Part shown: one piece after another, positions 20,654-48,210 of the stretch
Numbering within the stretch: position 1 is the stretch's first letter
Layout: each line of letters opens with the position of its first letter
NCBI GenBank assembly: GCA_004022145.1
Contig: RCNU01000006.1
Reading direction: 5' to 3' (one strand)
DNA: 64,000 nucleotides
Origin: Paecilomyces variotii
Taxonomy: Eukaryota
Notes under the pieces: generated by a model
The model's database searches: none
Told to the model about the DNA's origin: nothing
The model's input: only the letters and a program-made list of their open reading frames with translations
Position numbers and translations under genes: made by a program

Positions 20654-22280
20654 CGATCCTAACGGATTCAGATATTGTCAATGAAATGTCCTTGCCAAAA
20701 TAGCCACTATTTATAACCCTGTTGCTATTAACTACACACTTACACACAATAATAATAGAGAATACCCATCCACACCACATCCAACAACAGAAAAGCACAC
20801 ACATTCAAAATGCATACCTATCTAAAGAGATCTGTCTAGACTCTACCGGCATGTGAATGACATTTGCATAATCTAGACAATGTAAACAAACAACAACAAT
20901 CCCGACCCAGAGGCCCGGGAATGTGGTGTGGGGAAAGGACAGACAGGGAAGTCAGCCGTATCTATGGTATTTACTTTCCCGGCTTCCTCTAGATCTAGAC
21001 TCGAACTTCCCCAGACCCAGAATTATTTAGGTACATATGTCAGGTTCTGTGGAATGTGGAATGTGGCTGTGTGTCTGCGTGTGGCGGAGGAATTAGAGAG
21101 TGTCTGGAGTATATCTGGTGTAATATATGTGGTGGGTATATTTTTGAGTAGGCATTGGAATGTGGGACTGGGCTTGGGGGATATTTTAATTGGTGTGTAT
21201 ACAGTGCCAGAGTCTGAAGTTAATGGTTGCTTATGGTACAGGCGGAGGGAAAGCATACAGCGATTTACTTAATTGGGTCGTTAAAGGGATATAGACTAGA
21301 TGGCTGGGTACTTATACAGGCAAACTCCAGGCACTGATGAGATAAATTATATTACGGTGATCCAAGAAACACTACGTAGCTCGGATGTTCGTTTAGGTGC
21401 TAAATGAATGGGAGCTCAACCCCTCGATTCTACCGAAACAAGCAACTAGCTACTACTAGGTAGTTAACCGGCTCAATATAACTGTTTACTTCTGTGCCTT
21501 CGAGATTCGAGAATGAATGCATGCAGCCCATAACTACAGCTAGTTGTGTTGATCCTGAAAACCATCCGTATAACTAACGTATAGTAAACCCGCAAAATAT
21601 AAAATTGTTGGTTTACCTTCTAATTGCCCCAGTCTCAGATTCCTCCGATACACAGCAGGATATTTCCTATTACCACTCGGCATGAAGATTTTTATATATG
21701 CCTGAACTTAATACGAGACCTTCGCCTTTTCTTTCTGATCCTTTGAGGTTTTTCGGAGACCCCCTTCCCCTAGGCTGCTCCGCCGGGGATTCTCCCACAC
21801 CCGAGCTCCAAATATAGTCTGACATAGAACGAACAAATCAATCATCCTTCACCAGTCGACATGCCGAGGAACCTGTCGGCATGACAAATCCACGACTTAT
21901 CCGGGAAATGCCGGTTCTGAGGTGGCGGTTCCGACTGTCTTGTTCATCTACTAACTACCTACTTTCCGACAGCTCCATGGGGAGTCGTGCTCCATCAACT
22001 TCGACGTTCAAGGGTTTTTTCCTCTTCGATGATAGAAGGGAGTCGACCGTTACTATTTATCAGCCCGCATCGGCACCTACCAAAGTATTATTATATACTA
22101 CAGTTCGTCTATGGTAGTATGCCATTCACCGCCAAGACTTCACTCACTACCATAGATTCACGACCGCAGACTGGCCGAACAGAACCCCAACCCCCGGAAA
22201 CCCACATTTAATACTCTTTTTCCACCCTGAAAGGAAAGGAAAATTGAATCGCTTTAGTGATCGACAATATCAACTTGCAA

Positions 22281-22352
22281 GGGTTGATAGCTCAGCGGTA
22301 GAGCAGGAGATTGCAGATCTCAAGGTCGGGAGTTCGATCCTCCCTCAACCCT
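22281..22352 (+). tRNA. tRNA-Cys(GCA), no intron
   Basis: GGGTTGA/TCAACCC acceptor stem, TAGCTCAGCGGTAGAGC D arm, TT-GCA-GA anticodon loop, GTTCGATCC T loop, T-run terminator just downstream. Confidence 0.95.
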
Positions 22353-22921
22353 CTTTTTTGTTGTCCTAGAAAATTTAGGGGTGGTATCTTTTTTATCGTT
22401 TCTTTTTTAGACTTCGGCTTTCTGGGCCGGCATGTGGGAAACCAACTCGGGTGCGGTTAATCATAGTGTCAGCGCCTGGACACGTATTCCAGGTAATTAG
22501 CATGGCTGTTAACTATATGCAGCAGACTTTCTTTTTGGTTGTTGTGGATTTACTAGATCTTCAGATCTGGCATCTTGAGTGTAGTAACGTTGTTGATTGT
22601 GGGTTTAGACACATCTGGTTGTTTGATGTGATGACTTTTCACCTCCGTGCATTCAATCTCGGTGATATTATATCTAGATGAAACAAGAGCATCCCATCTC
22701 ATGTCAAACACCATGTACGAGACGATGAGATTCTCAGGTTTAAAACTGCCGGGGGTGGATTATACCTAGCGTTATCAACGCTTTGCTAGCTAGATATATG
22801 TATATTGCATAATTGTATAGTATGCAAGCATGATAATTGACAACCTTATATACACTAGTACATTATTATCTCCGAGTATTCTATACTTACAGACTTCCGA
22901 CAGCGCGATAGTTGTGATGGG

Positions 22922-39374: not shown

Positions 39375-40420
39375 TAAGCCCGGAGTCTTATTCGAGCTTT
39401 AGATCTTACTCTATTTAATGATGTGATGGTTAGCAGGTAGCTGAAAATGGCGACTTCTACGGCCATTTTACAAGTCTTGTTAACCAATATCCATCTTGGC
39501 CTCATGTGAGCGAACACCCATGGCCACGGCTCACCTCAGCATCCTCAATGTCCTAAGTATCCTCCCTACCCAGACGCCTACACTGCGGGAGGGGAGTCGT
39601 TTTTGGCTCCCCCCTTGACCATTATGTTTTCTTCAGTTCTAAGTCCCCATCATGCCAACTATGTCCTTTTCCTGCTCTCTTATCCTTCCTTCCACCGGCA
39701 TCTCTTGCAACACATCTCATCCTTCCCCAAACTCTCCTCATCCACAAAAACTCTATTCTCTTTACACCCTGAACTTTTCACTCTGGATCTCTGCTTTGCT
39801 GCCAGTTCCCCATGGTTCCGCCCAATTATGGCGCCTCGTTCCCGACCAGTTAGACGACGACAGCAAGAGCGAGAGTGATGCCAGCTCTAACATTAGCGAG
39901 ATCTTTTCGGACAACAGATCTGGTAGTGGATCCGATCTTGCCCTCCTGAGCTTCGCCCCCAAGTCTCAATTCTTATATCTATGTCGACTGGCCAGCGGCC
40001 AGCATTCTACCGCATGTTGCGCCCTGTATATCGCCTCCGAGTTCCGTATCACTGCTCCTATCTTCAGTGTGGGGATTCTGGGTCCTTCGTCAGATTGATA
40101 TTGCAATGTATATCATGTTGTCAGGGTGACGATCAGAAGGAAGGATGTCGGGCAGTCAGAAATTATTCAGGTTGGCGATTTGCCAGATAGAAAGAAGCCT
40201 TTATGCCAGTAAGTAGATAGAGTAGGGTAGGTGACGGAGTCAAAATTGAACGGATCGCTGAGCTCTAAGATAGTAGAGTAGGTCGAATTAATCATGGTGT
40301 ATATATCTAGATGCCAAACCAATTATATCTTTTAAATTAAAGCAGTTACATAGTTGTCTCTAGAAATTTTACTATTGGAAAAACTATCAATAAAGGAAAG
40401 GAAAAGAAAAGAAAAGAAAA

Positions 40421-40517
40421 TCCCAGGTCTGGGATTCGAACGCCAGAGCTGCGGCCCCCGAAGGGCTCAGGTTTCCCTGAGTGTCAATCGCGATGTTAAC
40501 CATTACACCAACCTGGG
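40421..40517 (-). ncRNA. Atypical tRNA-like Pol III gene with a structured anticodon-arm insert
   Basis: CCCAGGT/ACCTGGG-A acceptor, A-box TGGTGTAATGG, GTGT/ACAT D stem, B-box GTTCGAATCC, TTTT terminator; no canonical anticodon loop. Confidence 0.8.
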
Positions 40518-41013
40518 GATTGTTGATCTACTCAAGGGGGATCTCTTTTTTTCCCTGTCCTTCCAGTGATGGAAACGCACAGTTGTTCGACTTCAGCTGA
40601 TTAATTATGTGACCTATCAGTCGCACGCTAGGAGGATTAGTTTTCTGTCCTTTTTTTCGGTCCCCTTTTTCTTCTCTCTCTTCTATACCAGTGTCAGCAG
40701 TAAGGTAGATATAAAATTTATACTGCATTAGTACTAGTAGGAGCGAGGGGATAAAGCTTTATTTATATGCATGCCACTATCCTTAGTGCTGTAAGGGTTT
40801 GACCTATAAGCTATCTAGGTTCCGTTGGTATTCCCACATCGTCAAAGCCGGCGGGCGCCGCCTGCGGGTAACTATTTCAACTACATGTACCTACCTAATC
40901 TTAACTCTTAAAATAATAGCAGCCGGTAGCGCAAAAGGCTACAGTTTCTGATCCAAAGGCTACGCGCAACTGGTATCCTATACCTCACGACCGCTTACAT
41001 TCAGCCAGCGGAT

Positions 41014-41837: not shown

Positions 41838-44800
41838 TCATCCACTACTGTCTTCACTCTTCTCCAATAAAATAACCCCAAGGCCTAGCTTGCCAGGACT
41901 CATATCGAAGCCCCACAGCCCGACCATTTCGCAGTATGGGATACTGGTCGGTCCTCTATGGTCCCAAGAGCTGTGGACCTTATCGATGATGCATGTTCTC
42001 AGCCAATGAGTAGAAAAGTCCACACGGTCGTGACGAACAGACTCATATTCTGGTATCTCAATCGGTTTTCCTGCGAATGATTGAGACTTTCTAGCCTGCC
42101 CGGGCCCCACACGATCACTGTGAAGCTGCAAAAGATAAGTATGTACCGGAGAGAGTACGGTTGGCTTGGTTGCTTACAACGATGTCCAAGGTACCATGGT
42201 AATCTGAAAGCACCTCCAGGATCACAAGCCTCTCACCATCCTCAAAATATGCTTCACTACAAGGCCTACCATCCGTGCAGCCAATGGTACTAGTATAGCC
42301 GGTCTGGTAGCTGAATTTCAAACCAGTGAGATATTCATTTCCTCGATCACGGATCCGATAGGCTGAAATGGCAATGACCTGGTCGAATCGTCCATCAGAA
42401 TTTATCTGCCAGAAAGCTTTCTCTGGCACGGTCCATCGCAATTGCCTCATGCAAGAACGTGCGTCCCAAAGAATAATCCGCTCTGACTCAGTTACTGGCG
42501 ATGATAGAACGCGAGGGTGGTCGAAGCCGGCATTAAATATCCAACAGAAAGAAACCTAGATGATCAGAACCAGCATCTCGGCGACGGTGTCGAGAAATTA
42601 ACAGATATTCACCTACCAGCTTCTCAAATTGGTTCCCTGGAAATCTCAGTACCGTGAAATCACCGGCGGAGAGAAATTCTGACACATGTACGTCCTTCGA
42701 CTGCATATGAGACGTTCTAACAACTATTCGGACCACCCGACCAAGATGCTGGAAGAGCCAAGACGAGTTGTCTTTAGTTAACCATATGGAGACTTCCGTA
42801 ATCTTTTCGTTCGGCTCGATATCCATACAGTCTATGTCAGAAATCCACTGCCCCACAATCTCCGAAGGCCGAGAGTCGAAATAGTCCAGCCACAGTCCAG
42901 ATACTTCGTCTGCTCGTCGAGTACGTGACGGAGAACCGCAGGAGAACCGGATACGCCTGGCACCCTCCAGGGAAGCAGCTGTAGAGGCAGTGCATCCTGT
43001 TTCAGCCATGACATAGGAGCCTACTGAATAACATAGTTTGTCATTGAGAGGATCGTTGTAAGCTCTGTTTTGACCATAGGTACTCTGAATAGGCTGACCG
43101 TTCGTATAGCTGCATTGTAAACCAAAGGTCTGAAAGACACTGTTACTGGCCTAGAGTCCGAATTGTGAGTAAATCATAAACTCTGATTGAGGGACACTTT
43201 ACAGACCCCAAGCGTAGTTGCAAATCCGGTTATAACCTGGCCATAGGGTGCTGTAAGCACATCCGTACCGTACGATATCTCGTCCAACGTTGATACATAT
43301 TGGCGGTTGTAAGGGCTAAAAGTAACACTCCTCCCAAAGTTGGTGTAAAGCTAGTCACAATTCATGGATCCATGTTAGCTTCGGTTGTAGTTTCTGGTAA
43401 GCGGGATGGGGCCGACGGACACTAAGAGACCAGATTCCTAAAGAGGTTGTAGCTCGCTCATATAGCACTTCTACAATCCTCTCGCCACCTGATCCATCGA
43501 TAATGAAAGAGACCTCGGTTGCGCCTTGTTTTCCATACATTGCAGGATCTTTCCCGTTGAAATAGAACATCAATCCAACCAATGGTGCTGCATTGTCTTG
43601 CATATGTGCAACTATTCGTATTAGTTTCTGCAGGTGTTCCCCATACTCGCCTCCGAAGTCCATATTCAAAATGGGATTGTAGGTCTGGTATTCGAGGATC
43701 TCGGGCACCTGGATGATGGGTTTTGGTTTGGGATAGCTCGGTGTCCAGAGTGGCAGTTGAATAAGCTGCTTTCGAGTGAAATTCTTTGGGGATTTCGATT
43801 CGCGAGGAGCATCAAAGCCATCAACTATTGCAACTGAAATCATCTTAAAGGCCTTTAAGAATAAGTTAGACCGAGATCATACAGAGAAGCGGCGTTTCTT
43901 ACGTCAAAACTGACAACAAGGTTGAAAACGGCCAATTCTCTCTGCACGCAGATTGTTCCGAATGCAAAATTCGATTCTCTGCCCTCGACGTCTCCTAACC
44001 ATTCCGAAGAGGATACACCAGAATCACTTGATGAGATAGTCCTTATCGCAGAGATACCATTCTGGCGCGTTACAAGCTCCACTCCAATAAAATGCTCGTT
44101 CGGTGGGATCCACAGGAAGGTCTCTGTACTGGTGTCAACATAGCCCAGAGAATGACTAGCATATCCGGTATTATTGCAATCCTTAGTGAGTAGTCGAAGA
44201 GCTGATATAAACATTTGCGAGTTGAAGATAACGGTAGAGACACCAATTGCACGTATATATTGATTTCCCAAGGGATCAGGAAGGCTCCTGATGAAGATTT
44301 CCCTGCTTCCAACCTGCAGATAGTCACAGTTACCAGATCTTAGCTCAGTTGTGATTATTCTACCTTGTGTGGGCGTTTGCAGACTTATCTCCTGGCGGCT
44401 GCTCATGGAAAGATTGTCCCAAGAAATAGGGAAACCTTGTAACTGGACAACGGGTGAGTATAGATCAAACAAGGAAATATTCCAGTTGATAATTTGCCAT
44501 ATCCTCTTGCGATTACGCAGGCGTGGAGATCCTTGCGGAAGTTGCATTTCATGCTTCACAGAGAAGTATAGAGATCTCCAATCCACAGGACTGTGCGCTT
44601 GAGTGGGTCGAACAAAACCCATCTCGAAGTCAAGCGAAAAGCGGCTTCTCCAGAAGAACTGTGGCAGTAGATTAGGATGTGACCCGCTGGCGATAGACCT
44701 GGAGGATAAGCGAAAGTGTTGAATATCGCGGGATGGAAGCCACATTATGATGCTATTGGTATATTAGGGCATTTTATGGTTTTGGAAAGAGTCCCCAAGC

Positions 44801-45842: not shown

Positions 45843-47289
45843 ATGGTTCTGGAACTCCATGTCTGGGGACCAGCCTTTTCGCTGCCCTCAATTGAGGCGC
45901 AATCGTTGGCTACTATCGCATACTTTGTTCTAGCCGTCCCGAAGGATGAGTGGGTACTTGTCCCAAGCAGTGACCCTTCCGTGTCACCGACAAGTAAGTG
46001 TCTGGAGTTTGACTGCTTATTGGATTTCTAGCGCAGTAGGATATCCTCATGATAACGGTGGAGTGCTGACGTGAAAGTAATAAGATGAATTGCCTGCCTT
46101 GAGGGATGGGACTACATGGGTAAGCCGGTTTCGCAACATCGTCGACTACCTGCGGCAATACTCGGACGGAGAATGGGATCTGGATGGGTGGTTAACGGGG
46201 TTGGAGAAGGCGGATAATATCGCGTATGTTCCTTTGTCTTCTACTATGGATAACATTCTGGGTGGCTCTTCGTGTGGTGCTAACTGGACGACCGGCAGCT
46301 TTGCCTCCTTCATCGAATCGCGTGGACAAACCCTCCTCGATCTATCGCTCTACGTCTCGAGCCAGAATTATTACGGAAGCACATCACCAGCTTATGGCAC
46401 CATCTTAACATGGCCCAATATGTGGATCCTCCCACCGAAACTACGTGATGGCGCAAAGACACGAACAGAGCATTTGGGACTATCATCCCTAGATCTAGAT
46501 GCGATAGAAGAACAAAGGAACCGGGATCAGTCTTCTGCGACGGCAACAGCAAAGATCCCCAAGAGCCTGATAAAGAGACCCCGGGATACCGTCTCTAGTC
46601 TGTTAGGAAGAACTCCGCAGCAGAATCAGTTCAAACTGGAAGCACTCACGGCGGAGTTCTTTGAGCCGTTCGAGGAACTCCTGGGCAACAAGTCATATTT
46701 GCTGTCTGATGAGCATCCTTCGAGTTTGGACTGCCTCGCAATTGGGTATCTATCGTTAGCTTTGGTCCCGGAGCTCCCATATCCCTGGCTCCGCGAATCG
46801 CTACAGGCGAAGGCACCAAGGCTAGCCGAATACACGGAGAGGATGCGCCGACGGTGTTTTGGCATGGTCGATGTCTCTTCCGTCTTCGAGCCAAACGGTG
46901 CGGTTTCGTCGCTTCCATGGAGGGTCCCTGAGCGTGTTACTGTAGGCAAGATCGGTTCCACATTGATCAACACGCTTGCCGACTCTACTCCCATTGTCAA
47001 GGAGCTCCGCGCGAACGACCGTCTGCGGGATGCTGCAAAGGCGCCAGAATCTGGCTTCACACCCGAGGAAAGCAAGGCCATATCCGAAGTCTCGCAGGCG
47101 CAAAAACGGGATGTGTACGTGACCATCGCAACAGTTGCAGCCGGTATCACAGCCTTTGTGGGCTACTTGTTCCACGTGGGACTGATCCAAGTGAGCCTCG
47201 GCGGTGGTTCCGAATTGGAGGGGGAAGATGAAGGCGAGGAAGTCGATTTCGAAATGGGGGCGCTGGGTGACGCTTTATCTGGACTGTGA
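45843..47289 (+). CDS. Metaxin/Sam37 (Tom37)-like mitochondrial outer-membrane protein
   Basis: MVLELHVWGPAFSLPSIEAQSLA, SSDPSVSP|ELPAL, GST-like PSSLDCLAIGYL, C-terminal TM segment; two introns. Confidence 0.85.
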
Positions 47290-47973
47290 ACACAGTCTGC
47301 GTTCAAAAATTCCAATATAGCTTTCCTGTCTTGTTTGAATACTACCTTTTTTCTATGGACCTTTCTCCTTATTCCCATCTGTCCCATCTCCAAGCTGCAT
47401 TAGAGGCTGCTTATCCCCTCTGAATCTGCAATCATTTTCATATGCCAGAGCATTTGTTCGAGTGTACCCCATGATAGACTGTACTACTAGACAATAGCAC
47501 AGAATATAGCGGAAGTGTGAATCATTATTACCGAGAGGACTTCTTTCCCGATGATCTGACATATAAAATATACCCAGAAAACTCGATATATAGATATAGA
47601 GTATCCTACCCATGAGCAAGGAAAGAGAACCCATTACCTCAATGCTAACTACTTTTACACTAACACGTCCCGAACACACCCAGTCCCCTTCCCCTGTACG
47701 ACGACGACGCGATGATAATCACCTGACGACCAACGTCCGGAAGCCGAAAAGACATGAGGATACATGCACGACCATCCAAGCAGTGGATACGTTCAGGGCA
47801 CGAGTAATCTATACATTATGCTTGGGAGTATATGTATAATAGAAACTATAGTATATGCTCTTTCTTCAGCAGTAGTGATTCTCGGTTCTCCACAACTATA
47901 TATGGCCATACATATGCCTCCCTAAGAGTATAGGTGAACTGATTTCTCATTCAAGTACGAGAAAATATCAATC

Positions 47974-48092
47974 ACATACGACCATAGGGTGTGGAAAACA
48001 GGGCTTCCCGTCCGCTCAGCCGTACTTAAGCCACACGCCGGCAGGTTAGTAGTTGGGTGGGTGACCACCAGCGAATCCCTGCTGTTGTATGT
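47974..48092 (+). rRNA. Dispersed 5S rRNA gene
   Basis: ACATACGACCATAGGGTGTGGAAAACAGGGCTTCCCGTCCGCTCAGCC...GCTGTTGTATGT, 119 nt, followed by a T-run terminator. Confidence 0.97.
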
Positions 48093-48210
48093 ATTTTTTT
48101 ATCTTTATTTTTGAACCTCCCTTGAGCCTATACTGCTAGTTTTTGTTTCATCGTCAGACCGATCACAAGTACGCAGTAGTGGTCGTCGTCTGTTCAATCG
48201 ATCCTACACT

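Follow-up and report, generated by a model that had tools for sequence, protein, structure and literature searches.

A tRNA-like gene in an intergenic region

The element considered here is a tRNA-like gene of 97 nt located on the minus strand (40421..40517) of a 64-kb window, the whole stretch of DNA that was analysed. It lies within a 1.7-kb intergenic stretch, with an ORF carrying a luciferase-like monooxygenase domain (37950-38990, minus) as its neighbour on one side and ORFs that include a DUF7600 domain (43855-44763, minus) on the other. The nearest look-alike clusters of the luciferase-like (LLM-class) ORF are mostly bacterial. RIP indices of the intergenic region are 1.02 and 1.09. An initial annotation of this DNA had described a tRNA scaffold carrying two ultra-stable tetraloop hairpins in place of a normal anticodon loop, and the minus-strand sequence that it gave for the element was reproduced exactly.

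Read from 5' to 3', the element consists of CCCAGGT, TG, the D arm, C, GCGAT, TGACA, hairpin 1, hairpin 2, GCCGC, AGCT, the T arm, ACCTGGG and A, all on the minus strand. The 5' strand of the acceptor stem, CCCAGGT (40511..40517), pairs with ACCTGGG (40422-40428) to form a perfect 7-bp helix, which is followed by a discriminator A (40421) and then by TTTT. The D arm, GTGT-AATGGTTA-ACAT (40493..40508), contains the A box as well as G18 and G19, and T8 and A14 are conserved both in the sequence and in the Infernal alignment. The 5' strand of the anticodon stem, GCGAT (40487..40491), pairs weakly with GCCGC (40451-40455) through three Watson-Crick pairs, one A.C and one U.G. A linker, TGACA (40482..40486), which is single-stranded when the fold is constrained, separates this stem from hairpin 1, CTCAGG-GAAA-CCTGAG (40466..40481), and hairpin 2, CCC-TTCG-GGG (40456..40465), follows directly; an alternative register of the latter, GCCC/GGGC, spans 40454-40466. 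The 31-nt insert is unique in the window. Beyond the 4-nt variable region AGCT, the T arm, CTGG(C)G-TTCGAAT-CCCAG (40429..40446), contains the B box, the loop TTCGAAT and the pair G53-C61, with one C inserted between positions 52 and 53. The nucleotides of the tRNA elbow (T8, A14, G18, G19, T54, T55, C56 and A58), the pair G53-C61 and the D-stem pairing are all intact. The perfect acceptor stem, the weak anticodon stem with its A.C and U.G, and the bulged C of the T stem, which Infernal aligns as an insertion, had all been pointed out in the initial annotation, and each of them was found in the sequence.

Infernal, which that annotation had proposed as a check, aligns the Rfam tRNA model (RF00005, model positions 1-71) end-to-end with 40421-40517 on the minus strand at 26.4 bits, below the 29-bit cut-off, with an E-value of 5e-4. 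These figures come from a run on the 105-nt stretch 40417-40521 alone, where the filters are laxer; by our own rescaling, the E-value for the tRNA family alone over the whole window is about 7e-5. The alignment retains GCG/CGC of the anticodon stem and closes the arm with a local end of 35 nt against 11 model positions, so that the anticodon arm exceeds the model by about 24 nt and the T stem by one C. At the gathering threshold of RF00005 (29 bits), a scan of the window reports a tRNA-Cys gene and a 5S rRNA gene only. An Rfam scan of 251 nt at E<=10 missed the tRNA, and ARAGORN did not call the element in its default or intron mode.

Transcription signals at the flanks

A candidate upstream start-site motif, ATCAACAATC, stands directly before base 1 of the element (40518..40527, minus). 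The 8-mer ATCAACAA, which adjoins the element upstream, has only five copies on both strands of the 64-kb window. The tRNA-Cys(GCA) gene of the window (about 22281-22353, plus; 64.5 bits) is canonical and intron-less, with a T6 terminator 1 nt past its end, while the 5S rRNA gene (47974-48093, plus; 83.7 bits) is of the dispersed kind and has a T7 terminator. ATCAAC is found upstream of the tRNA-Cys gene (22265-22280) and ATCAAT upstream of the 5S gene (47960-47973), each at most 15 nt from the start, and one or the other lies no more than 15 nt upstream of base 1 in all three Pol III-type genes of the window. Among the tRNA promoters of Aspergillus niger, 28 of 37 contain CAAC, ATCAA or AACAA in their last 16 nt (PMC6108506 S2 Table, by eye). 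Judged from these sequences, Pol III genes of this group probably use ATCAAC/ATCAAT as their start-site motif. A similar start-site motif exists in yeast tRNA genes; a literature search for a described upstream CAACAA motif returned nothing to the point. Over its first 40 nt, the window's 5S gene is identical to A. fumigatus 5S-type heads printed in PMC5063351, and this identity makes an Aspergillus-type comparator reasonable.

On its downstream side the element runs into a pyrimidine tract (40379..40420, minus) composed of three TTTTC units, TTTTCC, TTTCC and T5, which would make a weak Pol III terminator; a (TTTTC)n-like microsatellite occupies 40386-40427. The terminator consists of four T4 runs, compared with T6 for tRNA-Cys and T7 for the 5S gene, and the T5 run (40379-40383) lies 37 nt downstream of the element. 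Every A. niger tRNA entry has at least five T in the poly-T column (PMC6108506 S1 Table). Of the A box, B box and terminator that had been called intact, the two boxes are so; the terminator is so only in part, with T4 runs close by and a T5 37 nt away. The contigs break in the pyrimidine repeat directly downstream of the element.

Taking the Infernal alignment together with the independent support from the flanks, we conclude on sequence grounds that 40421-40517 is a genuine Pol III tRNA-type gene locus, more than a product of chance.

Predicted folding of the hairpins

Folded by itself, hairpin 1 has a free energy of -8.9 kcal/mol, and its pair probabilities are 0.96-1.0. Hairpin 2 alone reaches -2.9 kcal/mol and has a pair probability of 0.02 in the full-length unconstrained ensemble, so that the term ultra-stable, applied initially to both hairpins, suits the first and not the second. 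Once the fold is constrained to the tRNA body, GCCC/GGGC displaces hairpin 2 as the favoured register, and the element folds at -36.4 kcal/mol into a three-way junction made up of GCG/CGC, an 8-nt single strand, UCAGG-GAAA-CCUGA and GCCCU-UCG-GGGGC. The unconstrained minimum, at -39.8 kcal/mol, is not a cloverleaf. Relative to this minimum the cloverleaf with two hairpins is less stable by 9 kcal/mol, and in the unconstrained ensemble the D and T stems have probabilities of at most 0.05; the pair probabilities of the acceptor stem are 0.66-1.0. For the window's tRNA-Cys, by contrast, a cloverleaf is predicted.

The folding energy of the 31-nt insert is -13.1 kcal/mol. Mononucleotide shuffling reached this stability in 62 of 5000 cases and dinucleotide shuffling in 63 of 5000, as did 175 of the 42646 31-mers of the window; the insert thus outdoes about 99% of shuffles and 99.6% of the 31-mers in stability. 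Such stability is unusual for random DNA and, by comparison with A. niger by eye, is not unusual for an Aspergillus tRNA intron.

Comparison with the tRNA genes of Aspergillus niger

A set of 284 curated tRNA gene models of A. niger NRRL3, complete with introns, is given in PMC6108506, and all four parts of its S1 Table were compared with the element by eye and across species. The acceptor stem of the element is found in no entry of this table, and three motifs of the element gave no matches there. The nearest body is that of tRNA-Glu: Glu1 agrees, by eye, at 41 of 50 core positions (8-31 and 39-65), whereas only 4 of 15 positions match in the acceptor stem and discriminator. Common to the two are T8 and G9, the D stem GTGT/ACAT, the D loop AAyGGyTA, C26, G27 and C28, an identical 4-nt variable loop AGCT, and the T loop TTCGAnT. 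They differ in the acceptor strand (CCCAGGT in the element, TCCGATG in Glu), the discriminator (A and G, respectively) and the T stem, which is CTGG(C)G/CCCAG in the element, and the element has an interrupted anticodon arm that offers no TTC/CTC anticodon. Where the T stem (50:64) and the anticodon stem (29:41) depart from tRNA-Glu, they do so through compensatory changes.

Hairpins of the kind carried by the element recur in A. niger tRNA introns (PMC6108506 S1 Table). GAAA loops cap intron hairpins in Phe9 (CGTCC-GAAA-GGACG) and Gly16 (TGC-GAAA-GCA), and a TTCG loop does so in Leu19 and Leu20 (GTTC-TTCG-GAGC). All 14 Asp genes with a GTC anticodon have TCCC-NNNN-GGGA or TCC-N6-GGA, the loops differing between copies (TCTC, TTTC, TTCC and others). 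The Val4 intron has a 6-bp hairpin, as do the elongator Met introns, in which the stem varies between paralogues while the pairing is kept. In the longer introns, as judged by eye, the beginning of the intron is paired with positions 32-37 across a loop of 3-4 nt, the 5' splice site coincides with the start of that loop, and a second short hairpin adjoins the 3' splice site; Leu-AAG is an example (TTAAGG, then TCCA-CCTTAA...AGCT-TCAC-AGCT). This two-hairpin layout was seen by eye in 18 of 21 Leu genes, a count that leaves out Leu11, Leu15 and Leu18, and in all five intron-bearing Met genes. Given that GAAA- and TTCG-capped hairpins and two-hairpin introns are ordinary in Aspergillus, the hairpins alone are no sign of a new structured RNA. 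The argument that GNRA and UUCG hairpins point to a selected RNA and are unlikely in a pseudogene thus fails, such hairpins being frequent in the tRNA introns of A. niger.

The 5' strand of hairpin 1, CTCAGG, fits C32 U33 C34 A35 G36 G37, and its helix TCAGG/CCTGA is, by eye, the anticodon-intron helix of the A. niger Leu-CAG genes Leu1, Leu9 and Leu10. The pattern in which CUCAGG occupies positions 32-37 would arise by accident roughly 1 time in 16. The element and the intron-bearing Leu and elongator Met genes of A. niger have the three-way layout in common; unlike in those genes, 5 nt separate the stem from "position 32" in the element, the hairpins abut without a spacer, and the 3' splice site would fall within hairpin 2. 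Read as an anticodon-intron helix, hairpin 1 therefore stands 5 nt (TGACA) too far from the anticodon stem. A class-II tRNA-Leu(CAG) was considered and rejected: the element has the 4-nt variable region AGCT where the Leu genes of A. niger have a hairpin variable arm, and its body, being of class I with no long variable arm, is not that of a Leu tRNA.

Interpretation of the element

The reading that we prefer, and to which we give about an even chance of being right, is that of an aberrant, intron-type tRNA gene relic of an Aspergillus-type fungus, probably non-decoding. Its body would be a class-I tRNA of the Glu/Asp type, with a working-looking A box and B box and the upstream motif ATCAACAATC. 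The two hairpins would represent the architecture usual in the longer tRNA introns of Aspergillus: CUCAGG, paired to CCUGAG, would make hairpin 1 the anticodon-intron helix, with the 5' splice site at the start of its 4-nt loop, and hairpin 2 would be an accessory intronic hairpin ending next to the 3' splice site. The presumed lesions are the 5-nt TGACA, the A.C and U.G of the anticodon stem, the extra C of the T stem, and terminators of T4 only. TFIIIC and Pol III may still transcribe the element, the splicing endonuclease would cut inside helices or not at all, and the resulting RNA would be Y-shaped, non-decoding and probably short-lived.

A splicing endonuclease of this type removes only introns lying between nt 37 and 38, and sets its cut sites by a ruler from the tRNA body (PMC10485636); an enzyme measuring in this way would cut the element inside helices or leave it uncut. 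When the frame is fixed by the Glu-like C26, the cuts fall after base 37 and before base 62 of the element, both inside helices, and would leave, as worked out by hand, the loop UGACACG with G33 and C37; the absence of a U33 in register, remarked on in the initial annotation, is borne out by this G33. The element has no canonical 5-bp anticodon stem with a 7-nt loop, U33 and a purine at 37, only GCG/CGC being aligned, and it has no intron between 37 and 38 whose removal would leave a canonical loop. The description of the element as a tRNA with a highly structured intron accordingly comes close to the A. niger comparison, but no register yields a canonical tRNA.

Homology to tRNA combined with disabling lesions, as found here, is what marks a tRNA pseudogene, and the element resembles such pseudogenes in its sub-threshold score, stem mismatches, T-stem insertion and undetermined anticodon. 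It differs from them in that its acceptor and D stems and its promoter context are intact, and in that it has no parent in the A. niger table. That the hairpins are undamaged is not surprising when there are only three or four lesions in 97 nt; we estimate a chance of about 0.4 that no lesion falls in the 20 paired bases. Several points weigh against the relic all the same. A recent pseudogene of a standard tRNA would not show a perfect acceptor helix with a 4/15 match to Glu, and the compensatory changes relative to tRNA-Glu and the retained promoter elements count against it as well. We also know of no class-I body combined with a CAG anticodon loop. If the relic reading is true, the consequence is a detail of annotation, an orphan and probably dead intron-type tRNA gene that escapes standard finders or is reported by them as "undetermined". 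More generally, hairpins capped by tetraloops, and layouts with two hairpins, are normal features of the tRNA introns of Aspergillus.

A SINE was also considered. AfuSINE2 of A. fumigatus (PMC5063351) is like the element in being tRNA-derived, in having A and B boxes and in its low copy number. The copies described there are 140-493 bp long, with a tRNA-unrelated region before the oligo-T and with target-site duplications, and their heads do not fold as cloverleaves. The element, at 97 nt, ends at the discriminator followed by T runs and is unique in the window, and a repeat search found no flanking direct repeats around it; the SINE assignment was rejected.

Alternative readings

The perfect acceptor stem, which is without an A. 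niger parent, keeps one rival in play, namely a functional tRNA-like small RNA, made by Pol III and non-decoding, whose anticodon arm has turned into a three-way junction and whose structured insert is under selection. We consider this unlikely. It would account for the intact D-stem pairing and elbow nucleotides, the retained promoter motifs, the very stable hairpin 1 and an insert that outdoes nearly all shuffles, and the element is without variation in two other assemblies. It has to contend with the inserted C in the T stem, a cloverleaf that is not favoured thermodynamically, a weak terminator, and hairpins of a sort that is ordinary in tRNA introns, as well as with the searches for homologues and transcripts described below. 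RNAs of the mascRNA type are similar in that they have a tRNA-shaped body without a decoding anticodon loop; they are cut from long Pol II transcripts, whereas the element has its own Pol III-type promoter and terminator.

Neither of two metagenome scans revealed a homologue. The first, with acceptor stem, D loop and 3' acceptor strand as the pattern, returned no loci. The second, with D loop and B box, returned 30 loci, all of which were inspected and proved to be unrelated tRNAs, none sharing the acceptor stem; four of the 30 are Pro-type tRNAs that share the D and T arms, a likeness largely forced by the search pattern. As a separate observation, the tRNA genes at the metagenome loci L010, L011, L021 and L029 combine a long variable arm and an encoded CCA end with the anticodon loop CTCTAAA, whose anticodon CTA corresponds to the amber stop codon; they look like amber-reading class-II tRNAs.

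A listing of 24 sequencing runs, in which only near-identical sequence is found, includes 20 runs from 10 studies that contain the stretch; the sources are one organism together with grain, fermentation and groundwater metagenomes. Contig placement on the locus covered four of the 24 runs (X9, X18, X19 and X20), and X18 had no contig there. A second haplotype in X9 differs by four SNPs, which lie at 40247-40293 and leave the element untouched; the number is too small for a test of constraint. Contigs of the metatranscriptome X19 span 40200-40381 and 40439-40800, taking in the flanks as well, and are not specific to the gene. The single 153-nt contig of X20, a run whose RNA origin is only guessed, covers 40313-40465; it starts within the insert and extends past every T run to a point 108 nt beyond the gene. 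None of the contigs of the four runs has a joint across the insert; these contigs contain no discrete transcript and are silent on any tRNA-sized RNA. In one X19 contig the orientation of a 96-nt segment, 40641-40736, is reversed with respect to the window, the joints lying at 40637/40736 and 40641/40736, and X19 also shows several small deletions at 40320-40350.

Improbable, in our view, is a Pol III-made tRNA mimic in which the acceptor stem, the elbow and the C1-G72/A73 end have been kept while the anticodon arm was remodelled as a three-way junction bearing a GAAA-capped hairpin. The C1-G72/A73 end would act as an identity signal. In A. niger the same end occurs in the tRNA-Tyr genes (PMC6108506 S1 Table). 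Such a mimic could receive CCA and perhaps be charged, would never decode, and might act on tRNA-handling enzymes as a decoy or regulator, or donate an amino acid. Were this reading true, the element would be a rare fungal stand-alone Pol III tRNA mimic with a remodelled anticodon arm.

It is quite improbable that the element is a working decoder after unusual processing, whether as Val(GAC) with a 19-nt intron, as a Pro-like CGG tRNA arising from the loss of 24 nt within the 5' strand of the anticodon stem, or with a CAG anticodon supplied by hairpin 1. Only at -ps95 does ARAGORN report the element, which it then reads as Val(gac) with a 19-nt intron and the canonical loop TTGACAT. This parse, which agrees with the Val-GAC reading of the initial annotation, is sub-threshold; it omits position 26, requires a variable loop of 11 nt and leaves the T stem poor, and none of the 17 A. 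niger Val genes has a GAC anticodon (PMC6108506 S1 Table). In a brute-force search of 648 registers, none with the intron at its canonical position gave a 5-bp stem and a canonical loop together with the correct position 26 and a variable loop of 4-5 nt. Good arms arise only when the excised segment lies at non-canonical places, as in GCGCC-TTCGGGG-GCCGC (4/5 pairs, U33 and G37), which appears if the 24 nt after position 29 are removed; among 648 registers one good-looking arm is expected by chance, and the restriction of the fungal-type endonuclease to introns at 37/38 (PMC10485636) speaks against such removal. So does the lack of a splice joint in the contigs from the four runs. By eye, the A. 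niger table does contain tRNA genes with insertions at non-canonical places, which favours unusual processing.

A reading at the level of DNA, which we regard as highly improbable, holds that the RNA is irrelevant and that a tDNA relic has been kept between two divergent gene neighbourhoods as a putative TFIIIC/Pol III site, either a boundary or a site of the "extra TFIIIC" type. The retention of the A and B boxes and the upstream motif beside decayed RNA-level features, and the position in a 1.7-kb intergenic region, would suit such a role, but DNA binding explains neither the perfect acceptor stem nor the hairpins.

A chance cloverleaf in intergenic DNA can hardly be credited: ARAGORN at the same -ps95 threshold gave 6 hits in 25 shuffled windows and so proves nothing alone, and the B-box pattern by itself is expected 1.38 times per window, but against chance stand the full-length Infernal alignment at 26.4 bits, an upstream 8-mer and T runs that begin exactly at the gene ends, and a core closely like A. 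niger tRNA-Glu. A separate ARAGORN call at -ps90, a "tRNA-Trp" at 46853-46975, was dropped, as by eye it is without tRNA features.

Insertions in some A. niger tRNA genes

Inspection of the A. niger table (PMC6108506 S1 Table) also brought out several entries whose assignments differ from what their sequences suggest by eye. The entries tRNASeC1-3, tRNAPhe1/4 and two named "Pseudo" appear to be tRNA-Asn(GTT) genes with a 55-64-nt insertion in the D loop that starts with GTAAGC and ends with TACTAAT...AG. Ala18/19 and three further "Pseudo" entries read as tRNA-Trp(CCA) with a GTAAGT...CTAAC...AG insertion after position 26, and Asp6 and Phe3 resemble tRNA-Pro(TGG) with an extra stretch in the D loop. 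A literature search for spliceosomal-type introns in tRNA genes returned nothing to the point. The insertion signals in these tRNA-Asn, tRNA-Trp and tRNA-Pro genes resemble those of spliceosomal introns.
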